Source: a virus
Virus record (IMG/VR): IMGVR_UViG_3300017963_000246
Length of the DNA stretch: 64,000 nt
Strand: one strand, 5' to 3'
A model generated the notes under the pieces. It ran no database searches and was not told the origin of the DNA. It saw nothing but the letters and a program-made list of their open reading frames with translations. Below are positions 1 to 33,863 of this stretch, one piece after another; position 1 is the stretch's first letter; each line of letters starts with the position of its first letter. A program made the translations under genes and the position numbers.

Positions 1-43
1 GTAGCGTACGTGCTGGGGTGGAAGGCTGGGAAGGGGGAGGGCG

Positions 44-505
44 ATGCAAAGGAAACTGGTTGAGATGTCGTTCCCCTTTCTTCAACAGTTCATGACGGAG
101 GGGCACAAGGCGACCCTCATCGAATGCGTACACGGTCTCCCGGCCGACGCGAAGCTCGTCGGATCCATCGCGAGAGACGTCACGAGTACCCGCAACGGCG
201 TGTGGACGTACGAGCCTTTGATCGGGCTGTTGTTCGAAAGCGAGCAATGGGTGGATGACCCGGTCGGACGACACGTCGAACTCCCTAGCGGAGAATACGT
301 GGAAGTCTTGATGCCGGAGTTCAAGACGCTGCGGGACCGAGACGCGATCACCATTGATTTGAAAGACAGCGGCAGCATCCGAATCGTGGGCGTGCGGGAA
401 GACGCGTCGGTCAGCAAAAGCGAGGATTGCACGGTGTGGCCGACCGTGACCAGGCACAAGTACCCACTCGACCGGCTGCCGCTGGAAGTGGAGGAGTTCA
501 CGTGA
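44..505 (+). CDS. hypothetical protein
   Basis: 153-aa ORF; G-rich SD-like run (GGGGGAGGG) upstream of ATG 44; stop overlaps next start (GTGA 502-505). No motif recognised. Confidence 0.6.
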   Translation: MQRKLVEMSFPFLQQFMTEGHKATLIECVHGLPADAKLVGSIARDVTSTRNGVWTYEPLIGLLFESEQWVDDPVGRHVELPSGEYVEVLMPEFKTLRDRDAITIDLKDSGSIRIVGVREDASVSKSEDCTVWPTVTRHKYPLDRLPLEVEEFT

Positions 506-1227
506 GCATCGGCGTGTTCGCACCTGGGCTCGGTTTTTACGTCGGGCGCATCGAGGCGCGGCAGCCGTTCACATTCGTCAGGATGGGGGATGGCGAATGG
601 TCGACCATCCTCCAAGATCGGACCCGGACGTCCTCCAAGTCGCAGCACATCGACATCCCGAAGCTGAAGAGGCTGATGCGGACGATGATGGTCGAATGTC
701 CCAAGGACCCGCGGTTCGTCATCTCGATGAGGCCGGGGAGCCAGCGGCCCGGAATCGAGACGTGGCTGGAGCGCAATGCCAGGACCAACATAAAGTGGCA
801 CGACTGCCGTGTACTGTACCAGGCCAGCAAGCACGGGAACCTATATCCGTGGGTGAAGGCGGTTCGCGAATGCGGGCTCCCGGTCGTCGTGGTCGGGCCG
901 GAGCGGCACAAGACCTTGAACGGGAGGATGTTCGACATAGCGCAGCACGTGGTCATCCCGAACCGGGATTGCTTCGTGGAACAGGACCGCATCCTGGCTG
1001 AGGTCTGCTTACCCAACCGGCCGGCGGTCATCCTGTTCTCGGCCGGTCCGGCGGCGAAGGTGATGTGCTGGCAACTGTGGAAGCGGGGCGTGGGCGAGTC
1101 GAGCTTCGTGTTCGACGTGGGGAGCCTGCTCGACGTTTATTGCGTCCCGATGAAGAAGAGCCGGAAGTACCACAAGTACCTGGCGAACAACCCGGAACTC
1201 ATCCGGCGCAACCTGACGGGGGAATGA
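502..1227 (+). CDS. GT-D type (DUF1792-like) glycosyltransferase, paralogue 1
   Basis: In-frame GTG 502 overlaps upstream stop; FTFVRMGDGEW resembles the RFGDGE signature of GT-D/DUF1792 enzymes; clear paralogy to next ORF (VVVGPE/VLVGPE, SAGPAAKV/HAGPASPV, DVGSLLD/DLGSILD). ORF-track extension to 427 overlaps previous gene and is discounted. Confidence 0.6.
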   Translation: MSIGVFAPGLGFYVGRIEARQPFTFVRMGDGEWSTILQDRTRTSSKSQHIDIPKLKRLMRTMMVECPKDPRFVISMRPGSQRPGIETWLERNARTNIKWHDCRVLYQASKHGNLYPWVKAVRECGLPVVVVGPERHKTLNGRMFDIAQHVVIPNRDCFVEQDRILAEVCLPNRPAVILFSAGPAAKVMCWQLWKRGVGESSFVFDVGSLLDVYCVPMKKSRKYHKYLANNPELIRRNLTGE

Positions 1228-1994
1228 TGCTCAAGACGATGACGAGGCCGTTTCAGTGGTGGGTGGACAAGATACGCTCGGAGAGGCCGTTCACGTTCGT
1301 CCGCTACGGAGACGGGGAGCTCAACGCGATGTTTTGGTGCGGTCGTAAAAAGGGCGGGGGTCGCACGAAGAACGGCGACTTCCACACGCTGCGCAGTCCA
1401 GAACTGCGAAGGCTCCTCAAAAAGAGCATCACCCAGCCGGGCGCGGCGCAGAACTATTATCGCAGCCTCTGGCTGGACCAGAACGGAAGGCCAAGGGAGC
1501 GGTTGGCGCGTGACCACCTATCCACGGTCAGCCCGGAAGGCGTGACGTGGTGGAACGCACTGGCAATACAGGCCGCGCTCAACGCGGGTCGGGGACACGC
1601 GTTCTTCCAGGCGATGCGAGGGCAAGAGCGCCCGATAGTCCTCGTCGGCCCTGAGCACCTGAGGAAGGTCAACAAAGCGGGATGCTTCAATTATGCCAAG
1701 TTCGTCCAGGTGCCGTACCGGAGGGCGTTCTTTGCGCGAGAGCGGATAGTCGAGGACGCGCTGGAAGTCGAAGGTCCGGCGCTGTACAGCGTTCACGCAG
1801 GACCAGCCAGCCCGGTCATCGCATGGATGCTGTGGAAGGAGCGGGGCGACGTGGCGACTGTCCTCGACCTCGGCTCCATATTGGACGGGTATCCGGACAA
1901 ACGGTTCGGAGGACCGGGGCAAGGAAAGATGACGCGGTCGTTCTGGAAGAAGCGCGCGACGAAGGCCATCATACAAAGGAACCTTCACGGATGA
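1224..1994 (+). CDS. GT-D type (DUF1792-like) glycosyltransferase, paralogue 2
   Basis: ATG 1224 overlaps upstream TGA (ATGA); FTFVRYGDGELNAMF motif; paralogous to 502-1227. Confidence 0.6.
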   Translation: MMLKTMTRPFQWWVDKIRSERPFTFVRYGDGELNAMFWCGRKKGGGRTKNGDFHTLRSPELRRLLKKSITQPGAAQNYYRSLWLDQNGRPRERLARDHLSTVSPEGVTWWNALAIQAALNAGRGHAFFQAMRGQERPIVLVGPEHLRKVNKAGCFNYAKFVQVPYRRAFFARERIVEDALEVEGPALYSVHAGPASPVIAWMLWKERGDVATVLDLGSILDGYPDKRFGGPGQGKMTRSFWKKRATKAIIQRNLHG

Positions 1995-2686
1995 ACGAGC
2001 ACATCGAATTCCTGACGCAGCTTGAGCTCATGGGGGCGGAGAACCACGTCGACGAGCTGTACCTCTGGCCGCGGACGCCAATAGCCAATTTGCAGGCGGA
2101 GGCGTGGCAGCGGGTCGGCGTCTCGGACTGGCGGGCGGACGATGAGCGGTCCAGGCCGGCGCAGGTTCTGAGGGTGCTGGAGGACCTGACGTACAACAGG
2201 CTCATATCGGAACAGTTCTCCTATCTGGACATCTGCTGCGGGGATGGCGTCATCCTGTGGCACGTACGTCGCACATATCCGTTCGCGACGGTGTGCGGCG
2301 TGGACCTGGCGGACCAGGATACGCATGTGCTCGTGCAGGAGAGCGGCGTCAAGGTGTTCCGAATCGCTATCCAACGTTTGTTCAAGACCACGGGGCCGAG
2401 GTTCGACGTCGTGACGATGTTCAACACGTACCGGGGCTGGACGTCCGCGGACCTACGAGAGGACGAAAAGTGGCTCGTCGACGCCGTGGATGAATGGCTG
2501 CGCCGGAACGCACGCTTCGCTATCTTGACGGTCGGGCGGAGCGATGTCGGGCGCAGGCAAGTGGAAACGCTGAAGGGTCGGGGCTTTTGGGTGACGGAGG
2601 TGGGCACGGCTGAGGACAGGAGCACCATGATACTCGTGTTCCCGTGCGACGCGGGGGAGGGACTGTGGAGCCAACAGCGACGGTGA
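1991..2686 (+). CDS. class I SAM-dependent methyltransferase
   Basis: ATG 1991 in ATGA overlap with upstream stop; YLDICCGDGVILW (SAM motif I), GVDL acidic motif II, FDVVTMFNTY; ORF-track extension to 1682 overlaps previous gene. Confidence 0.65.
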   Translation: MNEHIEFLTQLELMGAENHVDELYLWPRTPIANLQAEAWQRVGVSDWRADDERSRPAQVLRVLEDLTYNRLISEQFSYLDICCGDGVILWHVRRTYPFATVCGVDLADQDTHVLVQESGVKVFRIAIQRLFKTTGPRFDVVTMFNTYRGWTSADLREDEKWLVDAVDEWLRRNARFAILTVGRSDVGRRQVETLKGRGFWVTEVGTAEDRSTMILVFPCDAGEGLWSQQRR

Positions 2687-3456
2687 AGTTGTACCACGGC
2701 GATTGTCTGGAGATTCTACCGACGCTTGAGGCGGGGAGCGTGGATGCTGTGATTGCGGATCTTCCCTATGGCATAACGGCGTGTAAGTGGGACACGGTGA
2801 TACCATTCGAGCCGCTGTGGACGCAGTATAAGCGGGTCATCAAGAGGCGCGGGGCAATTGTGTTGTTCGGGTCTCAGCCGTTCGTCAGCGTACTGGTGAT
2901 GAGTAATCTGAAGTGGTTTAGGTATGAATGGATATGGGAGAAAGACAAAGGGCCAAACTTTGGAGCTGTGAAGTTCCGCCCTTTTACTGTAAGTGAACAT
3001 ATTGTCGTGTTTTCCAAGAACAGGCATACATATAATCCTCAGATGTGGAACGCTGGATTTGTGACAAATCGCTCCGCGTCCGACGGGCAATATGTAGGTG
3101 AGCAAAATGTATATGGTTCTAATGGTCTTAGAACAACGTGGCGGAATGCAACGAATAGATATCCGCGAAATGTGATTAGATTTGCTGTACCAAAGCATAA
3201 TGATGGGCGGAATGATGGACATTGCCATCCAACTCAAAAACCCGTTCCTTTACTCGAATATCTTATTCGCACATATACTAATGAGGGTGAGGCAGTGCTT
3301 GACAACACCATGGGCTCCGGCACAACCGGCGTTGCCTGTGTCCAGACTGGGCGGGACTTTATTGGGATTGAAATCGACAAGGGCTATTTCGACATCGCCA
3401 AGGCGCGGATTGAGAAAGCACAAGCAGAGATATTACAACTGGAGATGCTTGTCTGA
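2665..3456 (+). CDS. DNA methyltransferase (N6-adenine/N4-cytosine, beta-class motif order)
   Basis: KLYHGDCLEILP, VDAVIADLPYG (DPPY-type motif IV variant), HPTQKPVPLLEYLI, LDNTMGSGTTGVAC..DFIGIEID (SAM motif I after motif IV). Start set at GTG 2665 behind GGGAGGG; 2644 or 2683 also possible. Confidence 0.85.
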   Translation: MEPTATVKLYHGDCLEILPTLEAGSVDAVIADLPYGITACKWDTVIPFEPLWTQYKRVIKRRGAIVLFGSQPFVSVLVMSNLKWFRYEWIWEKDKGPNFGAVKFRPFTVSEHIVVFSKNRHTYNPQMWNAGFVTNRSASDGQYVGEQNVYGSNGLRTTWRNATNRYPRNVIRFAVPKHNDGRNDGHCHPTQKPVPLLEYLIRTYTNEGEAVLDNTMGSGTTGVACVQTGRDFIGIEIDKGYFDIAKARIEKAQAEILQLEMLV

Positions 3457-4853
3457 TGGAGCCAATCGCGACGATCATAATGCCGACGGTCGACCTCGAC
3501 CGTGCCGGGGAGACGCTGGCGATGTCCAGGGCCACGGCGGGCGTCGAGACGAGCGCCTTCCTGTACTGGGACTTCAAGCCGCGCGGAGCGGTCTGGTCGT
3601 CGAACGCACTGTTCAAGGCGGCGCTACACATGGAGACGCCGTACGTGGCCTACATGAACGACGACACGGTTCCGGAGCAACAAGACTGGCTGAAGCTGAT
3701 GATAGGGGCCCTGGAGCGGGACGCGAAGTTCGGCTGGGCGTGTCCGTCCGGCGAGTGCTCCACAAACCCGCAGCGCAGCGGCAGGCCGGGCGACCCGTTC
3801 GAGGTCCACGTCGTGAAGAAGCCGATGGCATGGTTCGTGGCGGTCATCAAGCGGGAGTGCCTGGAGGACGTGGGCGGGTTCTGGGAGGAGCTCATCCACT
3901 ACGGGGACGAGAGCGACTGGATTCAGCGGGCGTTCCGCAAAGGGTGGAAGCAGATTTGGACCAGGGGCGTCTACATCCGGCACAACAAGCAGGGCGGCGG
4001 GGAGATGAAAAGCCTGCGCAACGTGTGGGCCGGGCACGACAAGCGGCTGTACCGCAAGCGGTGGGTCGGTGGGAAAAAAAAGACGAAAGCGCAGGCGGGG
4101 AATGAGAGTCTAAAAGTGAAGACTTCCGGACTGCTGAAGGGGTCACAATTCTCCTGCATCGCCGGGACGGGCAGGACCGGCTCGCACTGGCTGCAGAAGT
4201 TCATCCAGGTACACGCGGTCGGCAAGGTGCAGACGTTCCACGACGGGCTTCCGAACCGGCTGAAGCACCGTCCTTCGGCCCGGTGGCAGATGGCAAACTA
4301 CCTGCTCAACCTGGAGGCCAAGGCCCCCGGCGCGGAGGTGTACGTCGAGTGCAACCCGGCGCTTCTGGAGTGGGTGATGCTCGACCATCCGGGGGGCGAG
4401 GTGCTCCCGGCAGGGATGCTTGACAGGGACTCAAAGGTTTTGTTGGCTGTCCGGCACCCGTACGGCTACGTCAAGAGCATCAAGGCGAAGGCGTGGGCCT
4501 GGAATTGGCACAAGAAGCCGGGATGCACCATCAAGGGTTGGCAGACGGCGAGCTTGGCAGAGAAGGCGTCAAAAGCGTGGGCGTTCAAGAACCGGCTCAT
4601 CTTGGAGTCGTTCCAACATGTACCGTACGTACGGTTCGAGGACTTGTTCAGCGACGGTGGTGCAGTGTTCGTGCGCGACGCGCTGGAAACACTCGGTATA
4701 GAGACCGACGTCCCTGACGAGCAGATAGAGCACGAGCTCGGGTACAGGGCCGCGCCGAAAGGTGGCTGGCAAACACCGTTGACCGATTCTGAGAAGGGGT
4801 GCATAGTGGACATTTGCGGGCCGATGATGGGAGAATTCGGCTATGACGCGTAG
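3456..4853 (+). CDS. bifunctional GT2-like glycosyltransferase / sulfotransferase-like protein
   Basis: N-terminal IIMPTVDLDR and YMNDDTV (GT2-like DxD); C-terminal half has CIAGTGRTGSHWL (5'-PSB P-loop-like) and AVRHPYGYVKS (3'-PB RxPxxxxxS), as in PAPS-dependent sulfotransferases. Confidence 0.6.
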   Translation: MEPIATIIMPTVDLDRAGETLAMSRATAGVETSAFLYWDFKPRGAVWSSNALFKAALHMETPYVAYMNDDTVPEQQDWLKLMIGALERDAKFGWACPSGECSTNPQRSGRPGDPFEVHVVKKPMAWFVAVIKRECLEDVGGFWEELIHYGDESDWIQRAFRKGWKQIWTRGVYIRHNKQGGGEMKSLRNVWAGHDKRLYRKRWVGGKKKTKAQAGNESLKVKTSGLLKGSQFSCIAGTGRTGSHWLQKFIQVHAVGKVQTFHDGLPNRLKHRPSARWQMANYLLNLEAKAPGAEVYVECNPALLEWVMLDHPGGEVLPAGMLDRDSKVLLAVRHPYGYVKSIKAKAWAWNWHKKPGCTIKGWQTASLAEKASKAWAFKNRLILESFQHVPYVRFEDLFSDGGAVFVRDALETLGIETDVPDEQIEHELGYRAAPKGGWQTPLTDSEKGCIVDICGPMMGEFGYDA

Positions 4854-5526
4854 CAGATGTGCAATGGTGATCTCAATCCCCAGAGCAGGAAGCTCCTGCG
4901 TGGCTGGGGCGCTCCATCGGCTGGGCGTTGACATGGGGACTGGTCATTTTCAGGGGAAGGATAAGGCCAACCCGCGCGGATACTATGAAGACCTCCAATG
5001 GCGCTACGCCAACCAGCGCGTGACGGGTCGCGGGTATGATGCCGAGCGTGCTGTGAAGGTAAAACCGGGCAAGAAGCAGAAACAGATTTGGCGGGAGCTC
5101 GCGGCGCAGTACAAGTCGAAATCCTTGTGGGGGATGAAGGACCCGTGGCTGTGCTTCGTCGGCAGGCACGTGTGGAAGGCGTTGCGTGAAGAGGACGTGA
5201 ACGTCCGCGCGGTGTTCGTCCGAAGGGATTTCGAGGCAAGCTGCGCGAGCATCTGCAAGCACATCCAGAAAAGCTACCGGGGCAAGTACAGGATGAAGCC
5301 GAGCGAGATAGCGTCTACCTGGCTGTGGGCGTTCGAGCAGCGTCGGGCGGAATGGGATGGGGAAAGCCTCGACGTCTGGTACGAGGAACTGCTCGCAGAC
5401 CCGGACGCGGAAATCCGGCGCATGGCGGGGTTCTGTTATGCGGGACTGGAGATACCTATACCGGGCATCTCAGACGCGGTGAAGTGGGTGTCGCCGGCAC
5501 TCCAGCATTTCAAGGGGGGACGATGA
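4843..5526 (+). CDS. sulfotransferase family protein
   Basis: VISIPRAGSSCVAGAL (5'-PSB-like), GMKDPW, VFVRRDFEASCAS (3'-PB-like); 11-nt overlap with upstream gene. Confidence 0.6.
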   Translation: MTRSRCAMVISIPRAGSSCVAGALHRLGVDMGTGHFQGKDKANPRGYYEDLQWRYANQRVTGRGYDAERAVKVKPGKKQKQIWRELAAQYKSKSLWGMKDPWLCFVGRHVWKALREEDVNVRAVFVRRDFEASCASICKHIQKSYRGKYRMKPSEIASTWLWAFEQRRAEWDGESLDVWYEELLADPDAEIRRMAGFCYAGLEIPIPGISDAVKWVSPALQHFKGGR

Positions 5527-6650
5527 TACAGGTGTTCTCGAACAGCCTCGACGTCATCGAGGCGCAAGCGATGATGAAAGTGCTGTACTCCAAATGGCTC
5601 GGCCGCGGGGAACGGTGCCGCGAGTTCGAGCAGGCTTGGGACCGGCACATCATCCAGGAAGGGTCGCTCTTGTTCAACTGCTGCACGGCGGCGAGCAAGG
5701 TTGCCCTGCAGGCGCTAGGCGTGGGACGGGGAGACGAGGTCATCTTGCCGACGTGTCATTTCGTCGGGGTGGCGAATGCCGTCATCGAAGTCGGAGCATT
5801 TCCGCGGTTCGCAGATGTGGACCCGATGACGATGCACATTCTGCCGAGTGAAATCGACAGGCTGAGGAACCAGTACACGAAGGCCGTGTTCATGCTTCAC
5901 TACGGCGGGCACGCGGCTTCAATGGAAGACATCATGGCGGCGTCAGAAGGGCTCCTCGTGTTGGAGGATGCGGCGAACGGACCGTGCACGGCCGTCGACG
6001 GCAAAGCGATAGGAACGTTCGGGGACGCCGGGGTGTGGTCGTTCGACGCGATGAAGGTGTTGGTGATGGGTGACGGAGGGATGCTTTGGCTCCGGGACGA
6101 AGAGGCTCAAAAACGGGCCGAGGCGCTGCGGTACATGGGCCTCGCTCCCAAGAGTAAAAGCGGCATCGACAGTTCGGCAGAGCGAGACAGGTGGTGGGAG
6201 TTCGATTTGGTCGAGTGCAGCGGGCGGTACACGTCGAACGACGTCCTGGCGGCGGCCGCGCTGATGCAGATGACCAGGCTCCCTGCGACGGTGCAGCGGC
6301 GAAGGGACATATGGAGAGCGTACCAGACGGAGCTCAGAGACGTGCCTGAAATTACGCGCCCTCCCGAGCCCTTGCCGGGGTCGACGATGACCGGATACCT
6401 GTACTGGATCCAGTGCGACGACAGGGACTTGCTTGCGCGGTACCTACTGGACAACGGCGTGTACACGACGTTCCGGTATTGGCCGCTGCACTTGGTGCCG
6501 TACTACAGGGACATGGGACTCTGCCCCGAGGCGCTTCCAAACGCAGAACGCGCAGCGGAACGGACGTTGTGCCTGCCCATCCACCAGAACCTGACGGCGG
6601 CGGACGTCGACAAGGTCATCTCCCTGGTGAGGGAGTTTTATAGGAGGTAG
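5523..6650 (+). CDS. DegT/DnrJ/EryC1/StrS-family PLP-dependent sugar aminotransferase
   Basis: ATG 5523 in ATGA overlap; ILPTCHFVGVANAV, SFDAMKVLVMGDGG (PLP-lysine box), LCLPIHQNL; ORF-track extension to 5325 discounted. Confidence 0.85.
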   Translation: MIQVFSNSLDVIEAQAMMKVLYSKWLGRGERCREFEQAWDRHIIQEGSLLFNCCTAASKVALQALGVGRGDEVILPTCHFVGVANAVIEVGAFPRFADVDPMTMHILPSEIDRLRNQYTKAVFMLHYGGHAASMEDIMAASEGLLVLEDAANGPCTAVDGKAIGTFGDAGVWSFDAMKVLVMGDGGMLWLRDEEAQKRAEALRYMGLAPKSKSGIDSSAERDRWWEFDLVECSGRYTSNDVLAAAALMQMTRLPATVQRRRDIWRAYQTELRDVPEITRPPEPLPGSTMTGYLYWIQCDDRDLLARYLLDNGVYTTFRYWPLHLVPYYRDMGLCPEALPNAERAAERTLCLPIHQNLTAADVDKVISLVREFYRR

Positions 6651-6651
6651 G

Positions 6652-7347
6652 ATGGCGAACAAGGCGCTTCAGCAGGGGGAGCAGCTCTTACAGACCGACA
6701 GGACGCTGTACATGGACCTGGGGAACAACAGGTATGCCAGGGTGCTCGGTTCTATCGTGGCGCTTGGAAACCAGGTGGTGTCGGATGCAAATCCGTTCCC
6801 GGTGCTTTTGAAAACCGGCGGTGGGCAGGACATCTCGACAGACGACATCACGGACGCGCTGACGACAATCGACATCTTCCACCACGAAGCGCACGAGGGG
6901 GAACTGTTCTCTGTTTCGTACAAGACGGCGGACGGGGCTCCATTGGCAGACAATGCGACCATAGTGCTTGCCATCCAATCCGCGACGAAATACCTGCACT
7001 TCCAGGCGTTCGGGGCACTGGGCGGGGACGCCGAGATGGAGTTCTACAGTGGTTCGACCATCGCGGCTGACGGGACGCTGATGACGCCAAGCAACCACAA
7101 CATCTCCAAGGGACTGAGTGATGCAACAGTCAGGCGTGACCCGACCGTGACCGTTGCCGGAACCCTGCGGGACAATTTCCTCATCCCAGGCGGGACCGGA
7201 GGAAACGCGATAGGCGGGGACGGGGACCAGCGGGACGAGTGGATAATCCCGCCGCTGACATGGGCGTTCGCACGGCTGACGAACCGGGCGGGGAACGCGC
7301 AGCCTGCGTCTCTAAAGGCGGTGTGGTACGAGGAGAGTACAAACTAA
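6652..7347 (+). CDS. hypothetical protein (probably virion-associated by position)
   Basis: 231-aa ORF with AGGAGG SD before ATG 6652; beta-rich; no motif recognised. Confidence 0.7.
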   Translation: MANKALQQGEQLLQTDRTLYMDLGNNRYARVLGSIVALGNQVVSDANPFPVLLKTGGGQDISTDDITDALTTIDIFHHEAHEGELFSVSYKTADGAPLADNATIVLAIQSATKYLHFQAFGALGGDAEMEFYSGSTIAADGTLMTPSNHNISKGLSDATVRRDPTVTVAGTLRDNFLIPGGTGGNAIGGDGDQRDEWIIPPLTWAFARLTNRAGNAQPASLKAVWYEESTN

Positions 7348-7529
7348 TGTCAAACACGATGTTCTTGACGGGTCCAGACGGGGATGCGGTTTCGGCGAGA
7401 TGCGATGCCGATGGGCGGCTGATTACGGTGGCGGAAGCGAAGGCCGTCTACGGCTGGCTTGTTCCGGCGTTGCTCTGCGTGAACGTGGCCGAGCTCGGCG
7501 CAATCATCGCGCTGTTGATTTTTAGGTAA
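7347..7529 (+). CDS. small protein with C-terminal transmembrane segment
   Basis: ATG 7347 overlaps upstream TAA (TAATG); 60 aa ending WLVPALLCVNVAELGAIIALLIF. Confidence 0.5.
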   Translation: MSNTMFLTGPDGDAVSARCDADGRLITVAEAKAVYGWLVPALLCVNVAELGAIIALLIFR

Positions 7530-7538
7530 GGAGGAAAC

Positions 7539-7928
7539 ATGACAGCAGGCGGATTCTACGAGGCGGACGGTGTAACATATGATGACCTTCGGGTTTCGGA
7601 CATGGGGGCTGAGAACGTCAGCTTCCCAGGCGCGGCAGACGAGCGTCGGAGAGTTGTTTACGCGGCCATTCCAAATGCGCGCCACGTCATCACGTTCGTC
7701 CACGGGTGGTATGATTCAGTTCCCACGGGCGGCAATATTCGCATCGAGTACGGAGACACGAACGTGCTCGCGTTCCGAGTGCCCGTGACCGGGGCCGGGA
7801 CCGGCTTCTTGCCCGTGTTCCTACGCGCCCCGACCAACACGAGGGTGCGCATCACGCTCGCTCCGGGCGGGGGGACCGTGCGCGGATATCTGAACGTCGG
7901 GCATCGGGTAGAAAGGCCAATCCCATGA
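7539..7928 (+). CDS. hypothetical protein
   Basis: 129-aa ORF, AAGGAGG SD; stop overlaps next start (ATGA). Confidence 0.65.
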   Translation: MTAGGFYEADGVTYDDLRVSDMGAENVSFPGAADERRRVVYAAIPNARHVITFVHGWYDSVPTGGNIRIEYGDTNVLAFRVPVTGAGTGFLPVFLRAPTNTRVRITLAPGGGTVRGYLNVGHRVERPIP

Positions 7929-10900
7929 GCCCCGGACTGACGGGCGACAGTGCGTTGACGGCGGTGTTGCCGTTCGGGGGCGCGCTGCCGGAATTCAGGT
8001 TTGACCCGGCCTCAATGCTGTTCACGCCTCAGATGGCCGAGCGTACCGGCCACTTTGCCGACTATGGATGGATTGCCCAAGGTAGAAGGGATGGAACAGG
8101 AACCCCCGACGTGGTCAATCTGGACTCGGGGGATATCCTTGGCAACCTTACGGAAACCCGAACTCAGAGACTAGATCCGTGTCAAGGCACTGCCTCTTTT
8201 TGGATATGCCCTGAGTGGGATGGTGACGATGGAATCGCTCATCGCTTCGCACCGTACATCTACAAAGACACAGACGATGCCCTGTATCTGAATTTCGGTG
8301 CGGGTGTAGCAACACACTCCGTGGATATTTCTGGATGGACCGCGGGGACACGATATCATGTGGCCATCTCGTGGGACAGCAATCGGCCCATAGATGGCAC
8401 AAACCACATTCGCATTACGATCAATGATACTCACAACTTTGGACAAAGCGATGATTGGGCTGCGGTTACGGTTCCTTCCACCATAGGAATCGGCCATTCT
8501 GGCTCGACCAGTGCCGATGCCATAATTGAAATGTTCCGCATCGACCGTTTTGTATGGTATGATGGTACCTATGGAACCGACATCGTAGGCGGGGACTTTG
8601 ATTTGATTGCCGCAGCCTACAACGCCGGCGCAGGAGAGGACCCCGCTCAGTGGATAGGTGCTTGGGATGCTACTCTTTGCGTCCCTACCGACCAAGCAGG
8701 TGGTCAATTCACCGGCACGGGCCAAGCGTGGTCTATGCCAATGGCCGATGCACTCCTTGAAACCACTTGGATGGACGATGGGAACTACTACGGTGAACCT
8801 CACGCTTGGGGGCTTACTACAGCAGGTGCCAATGGTTATGCTGACTGTGGTTCTGCTGCTGTTCTAGACGATGTGCCAGCTGGTGGGGCTGCAATGACCA
8901 TCGAAGGCTGGTACAAGTTCAATGTTTCCAGTTCTTCAGGTGGCATGTATCTGGCAGAGAAGGGCACTGGGTTCGATTCCGGGTGGAGAATGACAGATCT
9001 GGGGGCTGCAAATACGTTGCAGTTTTGGGTTGCCTGTGCCACCACGGATGCCTATGCCAGATACAGTCATGGTGGAGCCCTGTATGATGGTAGGTGGCAC
9101 CATATCGCATGTACCTATGATGACACCACCAAGATAGCGGAGATGTTTGTTGATGGGGTTCTCGTGGATGCTGGTGGCACCACTACTGGCGTGGGCAATT
9201 ACCAGACAGACGCGGCCCAACCTTTCCGTATTGGTTGTGACCTTGGGGCATTTGCCGTGCCTATGGATATTGGGTGGGTCCGGTATTCTAGCAATCTCCG
9301 TTACACTGCCGATTTCGTAGCTCCCCGCCTTATGCCTGGGGCTGATGGAAACACAGTCGAGCAATGGGCATCGGATGAGGGATCAGGCGCCACTATCGCA
9401 GCAACAGTTACATCCCCAGGTAACGACGGAACACTCAACGGGACATATGCTTGGATCGACACGTGGGATTGGAACAGCACCACGCCGGTCGTCCCGCAGT
9501 CATTGAATATTGGGGGAATTACAAACTGTGGATCTGCTGCGGCTCTGGACAACCTTCCTAATGCTGCCGTTACTGTGGATTATTGGGCAAGGGGAGCGGT
9601 CGATTCAGCCTATGGCGCACGTCTGTTTCAAAAGTCTACAAACTTTTATACATACGCTACTGGCACTGCATTGCGGGCTGGTATAGGTTGTGCGGTTACG
9701 TCAAGAGAGGCCATAGCGACAACTTGGAAAGACAACTGCTGGCATCATTGGATGATGACGTATGACCCTGGGGGGGATAGTAAGATTCGTCTGTTCCAAG
9801 ATGGTTATTTGGTGGCTGTTTCTGCCGCTACAGCAGGGGCATATAGTGGCGATGCCGCATCGAATCTAGTCCTTGGGGCTCAATCTGGAGCTAGCAATAA
9901 GCTGGATGGAGCCATGGGTTGGTTCCGTCTGTCTAATAACATTCGTCAAACCAGTCCAGGCGATACCGTAGGGCAACGTTATTTCATACCCAATGACCGC
10001 ATGAACCCTCCCGCTCCAGATGGGAACACAGTAGAGCAATGGAATCATCAGGATGGGGCGGGTACTACCTTGACAGCATCGGTGACTTCTCCGGGCAATG
10101 ATGGGACGATTTATGCCAGCTCGGAGTGGCTCAACTCTGGCGATATGACACTAGACGAGCCGGGTGCGGAGGTGCTTGGCACGCAGGGGTACAATCTCAT
10201 CTCTGACGGTGCCGCCGATGGAATGTCCATCCTTGCGACTGTTACGGCCTCCAAGGGGTTCGTCCTGAGGGCATCCATTTCGATTGAGGCTGACGGGCAC
10301 GGTTGGCCCACGATATCAGTGTACGATGTCTCGAATGCAGCCTGGATCAAGCAAAACTACTACCTACCGCGCATCACCGATGTCCATACGGGGGCCAACA
10401 ATTCGGCTACCTTGATAAACTCCAATGGTGCGTTTACTCAGCAATTGGTAGGTTGGACTGTCCACAACGTTACGGACAATAGCCAGGGCGTGATTACTGC
10501 GGTCAGTGGCGATGGAACGACCATCACGGCGGCATTGGCAGGCGGCACTGATAATGACTGGGACACGAACGATGTGCACAGCCTTGAGCCGCCAAACGGT
10601 GACCACTACTCCCGGCATCCGTTCATGATGGAAGCGATGATGGTGTTTGATTCACCTGCGGCTTGTACGCAGATCCGCATAGACATCACCAATGCGGAAG
10701 GGGCTGGTTGCCTATCGGTGCACCAGGTGGAGGTGTATCAGCATTCCATAACAAACGGTTCGATGGATGCAGGGGCAGGAGGCCCGTGGTTGCCGACTGG
10801 ATGGGGATGGTGGGCCGGTGCACCGGGGGCATTGGAGTGTGTGCAGGAAAACGCAACGATTCATAGCCCTGGATCTTCTGTAGAGTGGGCTACGCCAGCA

Positions 10901-11707
10901 GCAGATGAGGGGTTAGTTGCTCCCTTCCCATCACCTGGCACGAGTGGCTTTATTATGATAGGCTGTTGGGGATACGAAACAGCGAACGGGCTTCAGCTAC
11001 ATATGGAGTCTACGTGGGCTGCTAGGGAACATCTTACTGCTGGCGGAGTGTGGCGGGGCATTGCTGGGGCGTACTGGTCACACTACTCAGAGGTTATGCG
11101 CATTATAGATACCAATAGGCGTCCCGCATTGCGAGCAGACACAGGGGCAGCGGGATTCTTTGACGACGCATATTGTATGAACCTGACTGCTGTGACCCTC
11201 ACCGCCACGCCAGCATCTGAGCCCAATAGCGCGGAGGATGGGGGTACTCGTGTAGATGGAGACGACCAAGCGACCGTCCCGATTCCTGTGGGTGACCTGC
11301 CGGTCAACGGTTGCGTCATCGTGTGGAGCACAGTCCCACGGCGAGATGACACGGACCTCGTAGAACTCGGAAATGCGACGCCGCGCTGGATCGTCTTCTG
11401 GGGCGACGCGAACAACTATGTCGCCGTCTACATGAACGCGGCGGGCAGCTTACGAATGGAGGCCAACGCGAACGGGGCCGGTGCGGTGCTGGGAACGTGG
11501 GCTACCGGCGGCGGCGCGTTCGTGCCCGGTGCCAGGAACGATTGGAAACTCACCACGGACGGAGGGGACTTGACTTTGGCCGTGGACGGCACGGACAGAA
11601 TCGAGATTTCGCCTGGCGAGTTCGGCGTGGAGTTCAACACTATCTATGTCGGCCAGGACAACGTGAACGAACAGCAGATTGACGCAGCCTTTTTGGCAAC
11701 ACCATAA
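7925..11707 (+). CDS. large multi-LamG (concanavalin-A-like lectin) domain protein, probable fibre/receptor-binding protein
   Basis: 1260 aa; repeated LamG-like modules (TIEGWYKF..RWHHIACTYD, VDYWARG..CWHHWMMTYD, ASFWICPEWD..YHVAISWD). Modules are separated by a duplicated linker DGNTVEQW..G.G.T..A.VTSPGNDGT (nt ~9343 and ~10018). Confidence 0.8.
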   Translation: MSPGLTGDSALTAVLPFGGALPEFRFDPASMLFTPQMAERTGHFADYGWIAQGRRDGTGTPDVVNLDSGDILGNLTETRTQRLDPCQGTASFWICPEWDGDDGIAHRFAPYIYKDTDDALYLNFGAGVATHSVDISGWTAGTRYHVAISWDSNRPIDGTNHIRITINDTHNFGQSDDWAAVTVPSTIGIGHSGSTSADAIIEMFRIDRFVWYDGTYGTDIVGGDFDLIAAAYNAGAGEDPAQWIGAWDATLCVPTDQAGGQFTGTGQAWSMPMADALLETTWMDDGNYYGEPHAWGLTTAGANGYADCGSAAVLDDVPAGGAAMTIEGWYKFNVSSSSGGMYLAEKGTGFDSGWRMTDLGAANTLQFWVACATTDAYARYSHGGALYDGRWHHIACTYDDTTKIAEMFVDGVLVDAGGTTTGVGNYQTDAAQPFRIGCDLGAFAVPMDIGWVRYSSNLRYTADFVAPRLMPGADGNTVEQWASDEGSGATIAATVTSPGNDGTLNGTYAWIDTWDWNSTTPVVPQSLNIGGITNCGSAAALDNLPNAAVTVDYWARGAVDSAYGARLFQKSTNFYTYATGTALRAGIGCAVTSREAIATTWKDNCWHHWMMTYDPGGDSKIRLFQDGYLVAVSAATAGAYSGDAASNLVLGAQSGASNKLDGAMGWFRLSNNIRQTSPGDTVGQRYFIPNDRMNPPAPDGNTVEQWNHQDGAGTTLTASVTSPGNDGTIYASSEWLNSGDMTLDEPGAEVLGTQGYNLISDGAADGMSILATVTASKGFVLRASISIEADGHGWPTISVYDVSNAAWIKQNYYLPRITDVHTGANNSATLINSNGAFTQQLVGWTVHNVTDNSQGVITAVSGDGTTITAALAGGTDNDWDTNDVHSLEPPNGDHYSRHPFMMEAMMVFDSPAACTQIRIDITNAEGAGCLSVHQVEVYQHSITNGSMDAGAGGPWLPTGWGWWAGAPGALECVQENATIHSPGSSVEWATPAADEGLVAPFPSPGTSGFIMIGCWGYETANGLQLHMESTWAAREHLTAGGVWRGIAGAYWSHYSEVMRIIDTNRRPALRADTGAAGFFDDAYCMNLTAVTLTATPASEPNSAEDGGTRVDGDDQATVPIPVGDLPVNGCVIVWSTVPRRDDTDLVELGNATPRWIVFWGDANNYVAVYMNAAGSLRMEANANGAGAVLGTWATGGGAFVPGARNDWKLTTDGGDLTLAVDGTDRIEISPGEFGVEFNTIYVGQDNVNEQQIDAAFLATP

Positions 11708-13442: not shown

Positions 13443-14171
13443 ATGAGCTATACATCCTTAGGGGAGTTGAAATCCGCGGTCAAGCGCACTGATGCGACAG
13501 ACGATACATGGCTCCAGATACTGATTGACTCGGCATCCATCGCCATCGACAGGTTCTGCAACCGCGACGAGGGGTTCTTTGTCGCACAATCGGAAGCGAC
13601 GGACCGGTATTATCGCGGCCGGGGCGCTTCTTGGCAGGAGATTGACGAATGCATCGAGGTCGAACAGGTCGCGGTGAAGGACAGCGTGTCAGACGCGACA
13701 TACACGCTGTGGTCGGCCCCGACGACCAACATGGCCGGCGACGGGGACTGGCTCGCGTTCAGCGGGGACCCGGACGACCCAGACTTCAACAGCCTTCCCT
13801 ACGACGCGCTGATGGTGGACATCAACGGCGACTATTCCGTGTTCACGGGCTGGCAAGGCGTGTCGGACGTGTACTTCAGGGGCGGCGACCTGTACCCGTC
13901 TCGGAGGAGTCTCCGCTCGTCCAACCTGGCGCGCGTCCCGACGGTCCGAGTGCGGGCGAAGTGGGGATGGTCAGAGGAAGTCCCGGAGGGCATCCGCGCG
14001 GCGTGCGTGATGCAGGCATCGAGGTGGTTCAAGCGGCTCGAAGGCAACATGGCGACCGCGCTGGCGAACGCGGAGTTCGGCACTCTGGAGGTGTACCGGA
14101 CCCTCGACCCTGACGTCGGGTTCATTCTGAACCAGGGGCGCTACATCCGGCCCCCGACCGGGAGGCGGTAG
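13443..14171 (+). CDS. head-tail connector (gp6-like) protein
   Basis: N-terminus SLGELKSAVKRTDATDDTWLQILIDSASIAIDRFCNR matches the typical gp6-like connector opening; gene order. Confidence 0.65.
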   Translation: MSYTSLGELKSAVKRTDATDDTWLQILIDSASIAIDRFCNRDEGFFVAQSEATDRYYRGRGASWQEIDECIEVEQVAVKDSVSDATYTLWSAPTTNMAGDGDWLAFSGDPDDPDFNSLPYDALMVDINGDYSVFTGWQGVSDVYFRGGDLYPSRRSLRSSNLARVPTVRVRAKWGWSEEVPEGIRAACVMQASRWFKRLEGNMATALANAEFGTLEVYRTLDPDVGFILNQGRYIRPPTGRR

Positions 14172-14698
14172 TGAAGCGGCTCGGCGGAACCAAGGGGCTT
14201 CACAAGGGGTTCGACTTCTCTGTGAAGCTCAAGGGAGTTAAACGGGTCACTGCGAAGGCGGACCAGATGGCCCGCGACCTCAGCGGACGCCCGGTCGAGG
14301 ACGCGATGCGCAAGGCGACGATGGTCGTGACCAGGAGCGCGAGGAAGAGGGCTCCCGTAGACACGGGCGTCCTCCGGGCGTCCATCATGCCGGAGGTCGT
14401 GATGAGAGACAGGGTCATCACGGGAGTGGTGGGGAGCAACGTCAAGTATGCACCGTACCAAGAATTCGGAACGCGTCCCATCCCGAACGTGCCGCGAAGC
14501 GTCATCTGGCGATGGGCTCTGCGCAAGAGCAGCGGCAACCAGTCGCAGGCTCGGTCGCTGTTCGCCAGGGCGTACAGCAGCATCCGCCGGTTCGGCGTGA
14601 AGGCGAAGCGGTACCTGCGCGGAGCGCTCGAAGAAGAACTTCCGAAGGTGAAGGAACTCCTGTTTCACTCAGTTGAGCAGATCGTCCGGAGGAAATGA
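14171..14698 (+). CDS. HK97 gp10-family head-tail joining protein
   Basis: GTG start overlapping upstream stop; APVDTGVLRASI ... VGSNVKYAPYQEFGT pattern typical of the gp10 family. Confidence 0.7.
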   Translation: MKRLGGTKGLHKGFDFSVKLKGVKRVTAKADQMARDLSGRPVEDAMRKATMVVTRSARKRAPVDTGVLRASIMPEVVMRDRVITGVVGSNVKYAPYQEFGTRPIPNVPRSVIWRWALRKSSGNQSQARSLFARAYSSIRRFGVKAKRYLRGALEEELPKVKELLFHSVEQIVRRK

Positions 14699-21127: not shown

Positions 21128-22302
21128 GCTTTGCGCAACAGACGGGCATCTCAATTGCACTGTTTCGACCAAGCATAGACGCAGGAACCAGTTATGATCC
21201 GCGAGGCACCCTTGTCAGAGAGGACCTCGGAACACGCGTAGAAATGTATGAGCATACTCTGTCGGTCAATAATGGATACTTTCGAGCGCGATTTGTCATC
21301 AAGGACGATGTTCTTGAACTTGAACGCTGGATGGACCGAATTGGATACCATGTTGAAGTCAGCGGCTCCGGACTCGACCTCATATGGGAAGGCTTCGTCA
21401 ACCGCATCGCTCTGAACATTGGGCCAGTATCGTTCACTCGAGGGCCTTTGACAGACGTTGGCAACAAGGTGGCCGTCGTGTATTCCGAGCTTGACACGAC
21501 GGCAGACGAGCCGGTCTTCGGAATGCGCCAGAAATCACCATATGTTGAGGATTCGACGAGCCAAGATACCTATGGGGTCATTGAAAAAATCATCTCTGTC
21601 GGAGGTGCTCGCCCAGTAAACGCGCGGCAGGTCCGCGACACTTGGCTGACGGAGAATGCGGAGCCGATGACGACCCAGGAGTTCAATAACCAAGCGCACG
21701 CAGAGCCTTCCGTGACGGTCGAATGCGTCGGGTATTGGTGGTTTTTGAAAGCGTTTACATGGAACCAGATAGCCAATAGTGGAACACGCGGCATCAGTGA
21801 CCAAGTCCAAGATGTTTTGGCAGGCGACCCGAATGGTCTATTTTCCACCGATTACTCGCAGATAGAATCGAACACGTTGGCAATCAAGCGATATACAGAC
21901 GAGGATAACACAGCCTGGGATTGGCTCATTGGCCTAGTGGCTCACGGAGACGTGAACGATAACAGATACATATTTGGGATCTATGCCAATAGAAGGGCTG
22001 TCTACGCACAACAAGAGAGCAGCATCGAATACGTGCAACGCCTCTCCGAAGCACGATATCAAGTGGACACGCTTCGCGGGATAGAAGTCAAGCCTTGGAA
22101 CGTCGTGCCGGCGAAGTGGTTGTTCTATCCAGATTTTCTTAGGGGAGAAGTCATCCATACTACGATGAGACTCGATCCTCGATATGAATTCATCGAACAG
22201 GTGATATATACTGCTCCAGAAGGACTTAGGCATTACGGCGGTCGCTCTGACACTTTGCCTCAAAAGCTCGCAAAATTGGGACTAGGAGGAAGTGCTGTAT
22301 GA
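21124..22302 (+). CDS. minor tail / baseplate-like protein
   Basis: 392-aa ORF, GTGA overlap; position only. Confidence 0.55.
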   Translation: MSFAQQTGISIALFRPSIDAGTSYDPRGTLVREDLGTRVEMYEHTLSVNNGYFRARFVIKDDVLELERWMDRIGYHVEVSGSGLDLIWEGFVNRIALNIGPVSFTRGPLTDVGNKVAVVYSELDTTADEPVFGMRQKSPYVEDSTSQDTYGVIEKIISVGGARPVNARQVRDTWLTENAEPMTTQEFNNQAHAEPSVTVECVGYWWFLKAFTWNQIANSGTRGISDQVQDVLAGDPNGLFSTDYSQIESNTLAIKRYTDEDNTAWDWLIGLVAHGDVNDNRYIFGIYANRRAVYAQQESSIEYVQRLSEARYQVDTLRGIEVKPWNVVPAKWLFYPDFLRGEVIHTTMRLDPRYEFIEQVIYTAPEGLRHYGGRSDTLPQKLAKLGLGGSAV

Positions 22303-23087
22303 CCATGCAACGACGAAACGACGAATTGATGAACAACCTGCGAGCCGACTTCCAAGGACGCTATGAACCCAATTTCGCCTGGAAATCTGCGACTTCTTCT
22401 ATGCTGGTCATCCCTGGATTACGCGGTTGCTGGCCCATGAATGCCTTTGACCCGACAACGGCATTGGACCCAAGCGGAAATGCTAGACACCTGACCTTGG
22501 CCGGGAATTGTGTATATGACTATGAAAATCTGTATCCATTCATCACCATGCAAGGAACAAATGACTGGTTGACCCGAACGGATGAAGCAGCCCTCGATAT
22601 TCTTGGCACGGAAGTTTATGTCGCTACTTCCGTACGCGGACTTTCGATGGGAGGATGGTTCAGGCCGGGAAGGGCAGCAACGCAAGAGGACCTGATGACA
22701 AAGTGGGCGGCTGCGCCGCAACAGTCATGGTATCTGCGCAAGTTGGCAGCAAATACGATACAGTTCCAGGTCCAGGACGGGGCGGCTGCTAATTTCTCCG
22801 TCACATCCACGGAAACGGTCTCCGCAGATACCTGGTACCATATTGCCGGAACCTTCTTCGCAAATGCTTCCATTGAAGTTTACGTGAACTCCATCCAGGC
22901 ACAGAACGTTGCTGCGCCAGTCGCGTCAGTAAGAAATAGCACCGCAGATTTTCGCATCGGGGCGAACGGAGCTGGTGCAAATGATTATCAGGGAGACGTG
23001 TCCATGTGTTGGCTCAGTGCGATGGCACTAAGTGAAAGTATAGTAACCGCTCACTATCAGCAGACGCGCGCGATGTACGGAGTGTGA
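22299..23087 (+). CDS. LamG-domain tail protein
   Basis: LSMGGWFRPGR ... DTWYHIAGTF ... VYVNS pattern of LamG/concanavalin-like domains; ATGA overlap. Confidence 0.6.
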   Translation: MTMQRRNDELMNNLRADFQGRYEPNFAWKSATSSMLVIPGLRGCWPMNAFDPTTALDPSGNARHLTLAGNCVYDYENLYPFITMQGTNDWLTRTDEAALDILGTEVYVATSVRGLSMGGWFRPGRAATQEDLMTKWAAAPQQSWYLRKLAANTIQFQVQDGAAANFSVTSTETVSADTWYHIAGTFFANASIEVYVNSIQAQNVAAPVASVRNSTADFRIGANGAGANDYQGDVSMCWLSAMALSESIVTAHYQQTRAMYGV

Positions 23088-27441: not shown

Positions 27442-27460
27442 TTCGATTCTCCTTTCCGAA

Positions 27461-27490
27461 CAAAAAGGCGCGGCCCACACGGACCGCGCC
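27461..27490 (-). terminator. intrinsic terminator closing the ncRNA array
   Basis: Minus-strand GGCGCGGuccgugugggCCGCGCC followed by TTTTTG; lies ~20 nt upstream of the rsr SD. Confidence 0.7.
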
Positions 27491-27494
27491 ACGG

Positions 27495-31051: not shown

Positions 31052-31290
31052 CACCCCTCCCCTACAAAGATGCAACTACAAGATATCAGTTGTCCTCCGC
31101 ATAAAGGACAGATTTCCATGTCACATCCGGGATGGTGATAGCCTCCAGTTGTCACACCGCAGTCCGGGCACCGCTCGCCAGTATACGGGATGGGGTCCAT
31201 CTTGCTCCCAGTCGCAAAAACTATCGGTACTTTATCACACGACTTTGTGACCAGCATGTCTCGCCCGCAATATTCGCAAACAGCCATCAC
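31051..31290 (-). CDS. cysteine-rich zinc-binding protein
   Basis: 79 aa with CEYCG, CPDCG, HHPGC, CPLCG motifs. Confidence 0.65.
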   Translation of the reverse strand: MMAVCEYCGRDMLVTKSCDKVPIVFATGSKMDPIPYTGERCPDCGVTTGGYHHPGCDMEICPLCGGQLISCSCIFVGEG

Positions 31291-33833: not shown

Positions 33834-33863
33834 TACAGTCTCCCTTCTTGTGTCTGGACACAA

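Follow-up and report, generated by a model that had tools for sequence, protein, structure and literature searches.

The window, the whole stretch of DNA analysed here, comprises 64,000 nucleotides of the IMG/VR virus record IMGVR_UViG_3300017963_000246, and its first part carries seven consecutive plus-strand genes (502-6650) that had been singled out, from the sequence alone, as a glycan-tailoring cluster with two sulfotransferase-like genes. All seven proved to be real genes in the open reading frame (ORF) listing, in the raw sequence and by a filter on G+C content (GC) at third codon positions, which lies between 0.72 and 0.85 in six of the seven, the exception being the DNA methyltransferase. 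The genes are closely packed, with junctions that read GTGA (502-505), ATGA (1224-1227, 1991-1994 and 5523-5526) and TGATG (3454-3458), longer overlaps of 22 nt (2665-2686) and 11 nt (4843-4853), and a 1-nt spacer ahead of the next gene at 6652. The JGI gene calls place the start of the second gene at 1224 and that of the DNA methyltransferase at 2665. Family scans of the ORFs against Pfam, PHROGs and NCBIfam (a cut-off is hereafter the curated Pfam cut-off) bore out the families named for all seven: two GT-D fold glycosyltransferases, a methyltransferase dependent on S-adenosylmethionine (SAM), an N6/N4 DNA methyltransferase, a GT2 glycosyltransferase domain fused to a sulfotransferase domain, a second sulfotransferase and a DegT aminotransferase. 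The motifs cited for the GT-D and for both sulfotransferase-like ORFs were likewise all found in the sequence or in alignments.

The first two genes encode the GT-D fold glycosyltransferases. GT-D1 (502-1227) exceeds the Pfam GT-D cut-off of 27 bits (2.5e-7, 31.1 bits) and has orthologues at 44-51% identity in five relatives; GT-D2 (1224-1994) scores below the same cut-off (3.8e-4, 20.7 bits), with orthologues at 52-66% identity. The two are paralogous, as had been proposed (27.5% identity, E 6e-26). When a joint GT-D profile of 13 sequences (A5) was compared with the PDB, only 4pfx, 4phr and 5v4a were significant (1e-3), all remaining matches having an E value of 0.24 or weaker. The R-x-G-D-G-E sequence, with its DxE metal motif, is invariant in the GT-D alignment and aligns with that of the GT-D structures. 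As far as is known, those GT-D enzymes that have been characterised all elongate protein-bound O-glycans and do so in the cytoplasm.

The SAM-dependent methyltransferase (1991-2686) matches Methyltransf_12, Methyltransf_23 and Methyltransf_25 at 2e-6 to 9e-5, below the cut-offs, and has an LDICCGDG motif I. Orthologues with 51-58% identity occupy the same position in relatives, and the enzyme probably acts on the glycan. ORF5 (3456-4853) begins with a GT2-like (GT-A) domain (3456-4115), recognised by a PHROG glycosyltransferase family (2e-7) and, less well, by Pfam Glycos_transf_2 (0.017, 15.5 bits against a cut-off of 23.3). In the GT2-like family, represented by 18 sequences including a 194-aa paralogue discussed below, the pattern PT...N...LNDD (DxD)...HY is invariant, and the family profile has a single, weak match in the PDB, to GlfT2 (0.03). 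In relatives this domain is a separate gene of about 210 aa, with 60-66% identity in close ones. The last gene of the block (5523-6650) encodes a DegT/DnrJ/EryC1 aminotransferase for nucleoside diphosphate (NDP)-sugars that depends on pyridoxal phosphate (PLP), with a near-complete Pfam match (2.5e-81, 274 bits, profile positions 7-359 of 360), the PLP-lysine motif SFDAMK and orthologues at 52-55% identity. By NCBIfam it is PseC/WecE-like, scoring under every equivalog cut-off.

The view that these seven genes form a natural unit did not survive comparison with longer contigs. By exact-protein look-up, genes of the window are located on metagenomic phage contigs of 69.8-78.1 kb (JGI 3300028840 and 3300017971, ENA ERZ27256783, Logan SRR6963591); because these contigs reach 78.1 kb, the genome is estimated at about 78 kb, and approximately 14 kb, which link the end of the window to its beginning, are missing from it. 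In this missing segment the order is terminase (window 61942-63357), small genes, a portal-MuF fusion, a metallophosphoesterase, an S78 protease and an HK97-type major capsid protein of 435 aa, and after the capsid gene come proteins of 147, 227, 214, 194, 219, 240 and 95 aa, followed by window base 44. The seven genes thus represent, on the downstream side, two-thirds of a glycosylation island of an uncultured tailed phage. This island has the major capsid gene on one side and the genes for the head-tail connector on the other, and it contains at least 15 genes with three sulfotransferases and six glycosyltransferase domains. The seven genes were also considered as a complete unit, an option rejected since the island continues upstream beyond window base 1.

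The island starts directly after the major capsid gene. Downstream, it is bounded by the head-tail adaptor (13443-14171, plus strand) and the HK97 gp10-like or tail-completion protein (14171-14698, plus strand). The adaptor-gp10 pair is covered by phrog_442 and phrog_5, the second gene is HK97-gp10_like in the precomputed Pfam annotation, and both have orthologues in relatives. The roughly 4 kb of island just upstream of window base 1 encode p147, p227, three glycosyltransferases and one Sulfotransfer_2 protein. The glycosyltransferases are a 214-aa Nucleotid_trans enzyme (Pfam 8e-5, above cut-off), a 194-aa protein that is weakly GT2-like and below the Pfam cut-off, and a 240-aa protein resembling TOD1/MUCI70 (Pfam 3e-18). 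The plant TOD1/MUCI70 relatives have been linked to galacturonosyl transfer, and one relative of this phage, L004, carries a UDP-glucose dehydrogenase fragment; these are leads, no more, that the chain may contain an acidic sugar. In the portal-protease interval of the missing segment, the 467-aa metallophosphoesterase (L005:18757-20160; phrog_20266, 8.7e-35) occupies an odd site for such an enzyme, within a head-morphogenesis block.

The neighbourhoods of relatives were compared by all-against-all BLAST. The whole island is syntenic, at about 30-65% protein identity, in contigs L003, L004, L012/L024, L013/L032 and L019/L022, where the conserved order is capsid, p147, p227, the 214-aa and 194-aa glycosyltransferases, the 219-aa sulfotransferase, TOD1, GT-D1, GT-D2, methyltransferase and GT2, followed by a sulfotransferase of about 255 aa, a sulfotransferase of about 225 aa, DegT, p231 and the adaptor. 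A partial island is present in L008, L010, L011 and L014. A minimal pair of sulfotransferase and GT2 adjoins tail genes in L009/L018 and connector genes in L007, and is also found in the viral contigs L015-L017.

A wider survey, made by alignment of the capsid protein, found 451 relatives of the capsid gene in IMG/VR, 80 of which were fetched. In every locus where 3.5 kb or more of sequence follows the capsid gene (46/46), p147 and a Nucleotid_trans-like glycosyltransferase come directly after that gene, and p227 is present in 44 of these 46, with all matches on the same strand. The rest of the island is less regular: among the 24 loci in which 9 kb or more follow the capsid gene, an ORF6-type sulfotransferase occurs in four and a GT-D enzyme in six. 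When 148 ORFs of the post-capsid region from 20 diverse relatives were scanned with Pfam, GT1/GT4 domains were found in 16-20 ORFs, together with methyltransferases (including the TylF type), Nucleotid_trans, GT2, NAD-dependent epimerases/4,6-dehydratases and Polysacc_synt_2; Sulfotransfer_3 was detected in six ORFs (best 6e-18) and Sulfotransfer_1 in two (best 5e-22). Among cultured phages, the nearest capsid proteins are those of Streptomyces phage Dagobah and Caulobacter phage TMCBR2 (35% identity); in these phages the gap between capsid and connector genes is only about 1 kb, and the island is therefore considered an insertion at that junction. Judged from these loci, it is a clade-specific and variable insertion, with the Nucleotid_trans-like glycosyltransferase as its predicted constant core and sulfotransferases as a recurrent option. 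In simpler relatives (L026:13044-14708, with equivalents in most of the 80 loci), a single protein of about 550 aa, consisting of a GT1/GT4 domain and a Nucleotid_trans-like glycosyltransferase region, replaces the array of small glycosyltransferases, always a few genes after the capsid gene.

Scans of GTDB genomes with the sulfotransferase and capsid alignments, which were pattern-seeded and of limited sensitivity, found no relatives and hence no clue to the host. A megablast search of window positions 1-8000 and a tblastn search with the terminase gave no match to GenBank phages, and ORF6 and GT-D2 had no tblastn match among 50,697 GenBank phage records.

One gene of the block stands apart. 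The N6/N4 (CcrM-like) DNA methyltransferase (2665-3456, plus strand) is well assigned (N6_N4_Mtase 4e-31 in Pfam for the ORF 2677-3456; phrog_67 1.4e-79; CcrM-like in NCBIfam), and its composition is distinct, with a GC of 0.46 at 2801-3200 against about 0.62 in the flanks and a third-position GC of 0.52. No orthologue is present at this position in the relatives compared; a 196-aa N6_N4_Mtase protein is present elsewhere in L004. The sequence-only reading had listed the gene within the glycan-tailoring cluster; its membership of the pathway was rejected on composition and missing synteny. By the same two features it is best described as a horizontally acquired insertion outside the predicted glycan pathway, and it looks like a recently acquired, mobile anti-restriction gene.

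The predicted sulfotransferases received the closest scrutiny. ORF6 (4843-5526, plus strand) is a short protein of the Sulfotransfer_3 type (Pfam 4.4e-7, 30.8 bits against a cut-off of 27) for which 53 homologues, all metagenomic, were collected. The prospect that profile searches would place the putative sulfotransferases in unrelated P-loop families did not materialise: a profile of 28 ORF6 homologues retrieved Stf1 (1.5e-6), TPST1/2, the CurM sulfotransferase and SULT1 from the PDB, and at significant E values only sulfotransferases, and the model of the other block sulfotransferase matched sulfotransferases first. In the 28-sequence alignment the P-loop PRxGxS (P13-R14-A-G16-S-S18), a GYxED motif (E49/D50), K99 and R128...S136 are invariant or nearly so. 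A full HMMER scan returned 167 representatives at E values up to 1e-30 and 7,243 at up to 1e-10, and the idea of ORF6 as a tiny family was rejected on these counts. All ORF6 neighbourhoods examined (L003, L004, L007-L019) are on a viral contig or beside phage structural genes.

The C-terminal domain of ORF5 (ORF5-C; 4131-4853, plus strand) was harder to assign. Its Sulfotransfer_1 match (1e-3, 18.9 bits) is below the cut-off of 22, and single-sequence phmmer searches of the PDB with ORF5 and ORF6 yielded nothing useful. An AlphaFold2 model of the domain, with a predicted local distance difference test score (pLDDT) of mostly 70-94 for residues 220-465, was compared with known structures by Foldseek, and the top 15 matches are all sulfotransferases that use 3'-phosphoadenosine 5'-phosphosulfate (PAPS), at E values of 6e-6 to 5e-4. 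The motifs GRTGSHW (R240) and R333-x7-S341 are conserved across 15 sequences. The canonical PAPS-binding motifs of the SULT family are PKSGTTW and R-x7-S, and the two ORF5-C motifs match them. The assignment of ORF5-C as a putative sulfotransferase is made because of its fold model and motifs, and not because of sequence profiles. The domain is a free-standing gene of about 255 aa in 13 relatives. ORF5 is a fusion; the GT2 and sulfotransferase genes are adjacent but separate in all relatives but one (63% identity), in which they are likewise fused. Since the two are fused, they are argued to act on the same product.

The third member of this set is the 219-aa Sulfotransfer_2 protein encoded upstream of the window (L001:4925-5584; Pfam 2e-5, 25.2 bits against a cut-off of 22). 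Its motifs HxPKTGGT and RxPxxRxxS are invariant in six sequences, and its profile matches heparan sulfate 6-O-sulfotransferase (1.9e-5) and 2-O-sulfotransferase in the PDB, with only sulfotransferases at significant E values. The complete island thus holds three predicted PAPS-dependent sulfotransferases, each with a P-loop of the 5'-phosphosulfate-binding type (PKTGGTS in the 219-aa protein, GRTGSHW in ORF5-C and PRAGSS in ORF6) and a 3'-phosphate-binding motif with R-x7-S spacing.

Glycosylation without sulfation would require that at least one of these sulfotransferase-like proteins is inactive, or that the P-loop fold serves some other reaction, such as a kinase-like phosphorylation of a glycan or base. 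Such a reading can draw on the family profile of ORF5-C, which matched no sulfotransferase in the PDB, and on its score under the Pfam cut-off; nucleoside and nucleotide kinases are found further down its Foldseek list, the phage has no PAPS-synthesis genes, and the invariant residues that might be catalytic (E49/D50, K99 and H140 in ORF6, E298 in ORF5-C, H53 in the 219-aa protein) are candidates only. On the other side are the presence of both PAPS-binding motifs, with canonical spacing, in all three proteins, none of which has a Walker A sequence (GxxxxGK[ST]), the above-cut-off scores and exclusively sulfotransferase PDB matches of ORF6 and the 219-aa protein, and the 15 leading fold matches of ORF5-C. 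The invariance of the motifs over families of 15-28 sequences is a further argument, as it speaks for a cofactor site kept by purifying selection. Overall, an island that glycosylates and does not sulfate is improbable, and it is likely that the island builds a sulfated glycan, on whatever acceptor.

The proposed function is a late glycosylation of a head protein, in the cytoplasm, with an aminated, methylated and sulfated oligosaccharide. From the gene content and its placement, this is considered reasonably probable. The island would be transcribed with the head genes, and its soluble enzymes would act during head assembly on nucleotide-sugars, SAM and PAPS of the host. DegT would convert a host-supplied NDP-keto-sugar to an NDP-amino-sugar. 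The Nucleotid_trans-like glycosyltransferase probably primes the glycan on the head protein, because it is clade-wide and nearest to the capsid gene, and the acceptor would probably be the major capsid protein or the adjoining, conserved 147-aa protein p147. The chain would then be extended by two GT2-like, one TOD1/MUCI70-like and two GT-D glycosyltransferases, which with the priming enzyme account for the six glycosyltransferase domains, and would be methylated by the SAM methyltransferase. The three sulfotransferases would add sulfate esters, the fused one presumably to the product of its GT2 partner, and the outcome would be an anionic glycan coat on the capsid. What the analysis, computational throughout, shows is which families the enzymes belong to, how the genes are ordered, that this order is conserved, that ORF5 is a fusion and that the enzymes lack membrane segments; which molecule accepts the glycan, how the steps follow one another, where the sulfate comes from, when the genes are expressed and what the phage gains are our inferences.

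Several points weigh against the proposal. To the lack of a PDB sulfotransferase match for the ORF5-C profile must be added its weak relation to the ORF6 family by hhalign (probability 23%), and ORF5-C, GT-D2, the SAM methyltransferase and both GT2-like domains all score under the Pfam cut-offs. The phage lacks not only a PAPS-synthesis gene but also a 4,6-dehydratase, and the sulfate donor and the keto-sugar must therefore be supplied by the host. Late expression is deduced from gene position only. No recognisable fold or family was found for p147, p227 or p231 (profiles of the last two had no match in the PDB). Finally, the same genome encodes a DNA-glycosylation gene, discussed below, which makes DNA a possible acceptor.

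The sequence-only reading had left the acceptor as either a virion protein or a host envelope glycan, and comparative genomics strengthened the first of these, because throughout a large clade the position of the island, with capsid genes on one side and connector genes on the other, is fixed and its enzymes lack membrane segments. A head protein is accordingly the somewhat favoured acceptor in our predictions. If the host envelope were the target instead, the enzymes would alter a surface polysaccharide, an S-layer glycan or a lipid-linked intermediate; exclusion of superinfecting phages, or keeping progeny from re-adsorbing to lysed cells, are examples of what this could achieve. Phage glycosyltransferases that alter the O-antigen are well known, undecaprenyl-linked intermediates are accessible to cytoplasmic glycosyltransferases, and in PHROGs the families of glycosyltransferases and sulfotransferases from phages are listed in the category 'moron, auxiliary metabolic gene and host takeover'. 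However, no membrane or hydrophobic segment was detected in any island enzyme, and family scans of the proteins of the window block and the upstream island found no flippase, polymerase or acyltransferase/ligase partner. Nor does the island resemble an autonomous cassette. It is embedded in the head operon with overlapping genes, promoter-like and terminator-like sites in the region are not commoner than in shuffled sequence, and no integrase was detected among the ORFs scanned; the linkage of glycosyltransferase and capsid genes is fixed across a large clade, unlike that of serotype-conversion cassettes. Remodelling of the host envelope is accordingly regarded as very unlikely. A terminator-like hairpin is present at 6620-6645 (CTCCCTGGTGAGGGAG then TTTTATAGGA), at the extreme end of the DegT gene, where it overlaps the ribosome-binding site of the next gene.

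DNA was left out of the acceptor options at first, despite the presence of a TET-associated glycosyltransferase (TAGT), a C5 cytosine methylase and a ParB-like gene in the window. The TAGT gene (59298-60266, plus strand; PF20691, 1.6e-43) is near the terminase gene, overlaps a radical SAM/SPASM gene (60253-61389, plus strand) and adjoins the ParB-like gene (58721-59371, plus strand). Together these three genes upstream of the terminase are a probable DNA-glycosylation module, in which the radical SAM enzyme is a candidate maker of the hydroxylated base. The C5 cytosine methylase (39899-40636, minus strand), a short protein of 245 aa, is 20 kb from this module. The TAGT family is very large and highly conserved in many phages (more than 7,700 matches); when the terminase, radical SAM and portal proteins were each used as a single query, the scans recovered only this phage or one distant relative.

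It is conceivable, as the main rival reading, that TAGT primes a hydroxymethylated base and that the island enzymes then extend, aminate, methylate and sulfate a DNA glycan prior to packaging. Such hypermodification would account for the TAGT module upstream of the terminase and for the C5 methylase, and it would fit the solubility of all island enzymes and the DNA methyltransferase inside the island. There are also precedents: phage glycosyltransferases can build di- and tri-saccharides on 5-hydroxymethylcytosine, in clusters beside ParB, methylases and terminase (bioRxiv 10.1101/2023.12.21.572611), and PMC10829341 credits Iyer et al. 2013 with phage nucleotide modification systems based on glycosyltransferases and sulfotransferases. 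Yet TAGT is more than 10 kb from the island, with the terminase, portal, protease and capsid genes in between, and the anchor of the island is the capsid gene, in 46/46 relatives. Homologues of TAGT, radical SAM, ParB and the C5 methylase were found in 0/80 capsid-centred loci, two of which (L026 and L083, both without the sulfotransferase part of the island) reach at least 4.5 kb upstream of the terminase. A search for a TET/JBP or other 2-oxoglutarate-dependent oxygenase was negative both for the 77 window ORFs scanned and for the 14 kb outside the window, as annotated beforehand. As described above, the island's own DNA methyltransferase is a low-GC insertion without a same-position orthologue in relatives, and GT-D enzymes and sulfotransferases of the heparan sulfate type are known from protein or polysaccharide glycans. 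The island shares with the clusters of TET/5mYOX, methylase and glycosyltransferase genes the use of phage glycosyltransferases, in some cases along with sugar-tailoring partners, to build glycans on a macromolecule before packaging, and a TAGT member is present in this genome; it differs from them in being anchored to the capsid gene and not beside TAGT, the C5 methylase or an oxygenase, and in that no TET was found. DNA as the acceptor of the island glycan is therefore an unlikely solution, and TAGT is read as a second, separate glycosylation system directed at DNA.

A glycosylated head protein, the reading preferred here, has parallels in several known systems. In the Cluster O mycobacteriophages (Corndog), an O-methyltransferase (gp35) and three glycosyltransferases (gp36-38) are encoded inside the structural operon (PMC4351075). 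As in the island, soluble glycosyltransferases and a methyltransferase lie within a structural operon, and in mycobacteriophages they are thought, and in some phages shown, to glycosylate capsid or tail proteins. Freeman et al. 2023 are said to describe virion glycosylation likewise in Che8 and Myrna. The island is far larger, with six glycosyltransferase domains including GT-D and TOD1/MUCI70 types, adds an aminotransferase and three sulfotransferases, and is known from its genes alone; there is, in addition, no sign that the host of this phage is an actinobacterium.

The O-glycosylation of serine-rich repeat adhesins (Fap1) includes dGT1/GalT1 (DUF1792), the founding GT-D enzymes, and shares with the island the GT-D enzymes with a DxE metal motif. 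In that system, a glycan bound to the protein is lengthened sugar by sugar in the cytoplasm, and lipid carriers play no part. By contrast, the phage island lacks priming enzymes of the GtfA/B type, an accessory Sec system and a serine-rich repeat acceptor, and the sequence similarity is low (E 1e-3).

Predicted sulfotransferases are also found in glycosylation clusters of giant viruses (PMC10117803). The 12-gene fibril cluster of Moumouvirus australiensis (Megavirinae) resembles the island in that a predicted sulfotransferase is combined with an aminotransferase and with glycosyltransferases, of which one is a relative of the GT-D structures 4PHR/5V4A, and its authors suggested, as a prediction only, that the sugars on capsid-associated fibrils may be sulfated (PMC10117803). 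Here the differences are that Moumouvirus is a eukaryotic giant virus with one sulfotransferase as opposed to three, and that it has its own sulfate adenylyltransferase/APS (adenosine 5'-phosphosulfate) kinase as well as full nucleotide-sugar pathways, neither of which is encoded by the phage.

The statement that phage-encoded sulfation has not been described holds for experiments, as no experimental case was found in the literature, but not for annotation. Phage sulfotransferase genes have been annotated before, in PHROGs (phrog_3347; a family named 'Galactose-3-O-sulfotransferase'), in scattered genome papers and, according to PMC10829341, in Iyer et al. 2013.

In its fullest form the proposal is that a large clade of uncultured tailed phages, in which the capsid gene has no fewer than 451 relatives in IMG/VR, harbours a hypervariable, capsid-adjacent glycan island, comparable to an O-antigen locus for virions, which in this phage builds an aminated, methylated and multiply sulfated capsid oligosaccharide. 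This is put forward tentatively, its chances being slightly short of even. If it is correct, it would represent the first phage-encoded sulfation of a virion and would be evidence for diversifying selection on virion surface glycans. So far, virion glycosylation of phages is known in just a few mycobacteriophages, in which it changes antibody recognition; if an island anchored to the capsid gene recurs in hundreds of environmental phages, and relatives exchange glycosyltransferases, methyltransferases, dehydratases and sulfotransferases in it, virion glycans would count as a trait of phage particles at large, and an evolvable one. Sulfate esters would give the capsid a strongly negative, hydrated coat. 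Adsorption to minerals, mucus or decoy surfaces could be affected by such a coat, as could the stability of the particle and the way in which hosts or grazers recognise it. The island further supplies small soluble enzymes that can be synthesised and tested without culture of the phage, namely GT-D enzymes, sulfotransferases of about 220-255 aa and a glycosyltransferase naturally fused to a sulfotransferase; they may serve glycoengineering of protein nanoparticles.

The block is flanked by two small conserved genes. Ahead of GT-D1, p146 (44-505, plus strand) has weak same-position orthologues in L004 and L013 and no Pfam or PHROG match. After DegT, p231 (6652-7347, plus strand) encodes a conserved protein of 231 aa that belongs to phrog_5335, with orthologues in L003, L004, L008, L010 and L013; in L011 and L012 it is replaced by another gene. 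Its motifs are H-H-E-x-H-x-G, which is invariant and reads HHEIHEGE in the majority of relatives, and NRAGNAQ...WYEE; a single-sequence AlphaFold model is poor (pLDDT 39), with mostly beta secondary structure. The protein could be an enzyme or a head accessory protein, the more specific candidates being a cupin-like enzyme that binds metal and a structural protein of the jelly-roll type.

The LamG proteins that had been noted near the block are present, with LamG domains at 7925-11707 and 22299-23087. The first of these regions (plus strand) encodes a 1260-aa Laminin_G_3 protein (6.7e-24), a lectin-like family of the ConA type, with a low GC of 0.50-0.56. The closest relatives have no full-length orthologue, and at that place encode smaller LamG proteins (L004 and L014) or none. 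The 1260-aa protein is a candidate head fibre or decoration protein, a variable, lectin-like appendage of the head or neck beside a glycan island.

Rfam and tRNA scans of the window detected no RNA family and no tRNA. The opposite arm carries, on the minus strand at 25771-27492 and 42400-43290, genes for a Ro60/TROVE protein that includes a vWA domain (2e-53 and 2e-44) and for an RNA ligase; no Y-RNA-like partner for the former was found by Rfam in the window. Three further minus-strand genes encode a pentapeptide-repeat protein (33144-33863; 1.5e-36), a DnaJ-domain protein (53923-54390) and a Gp3-like, 'recombination directionality factor-like' protein (31287-32453).

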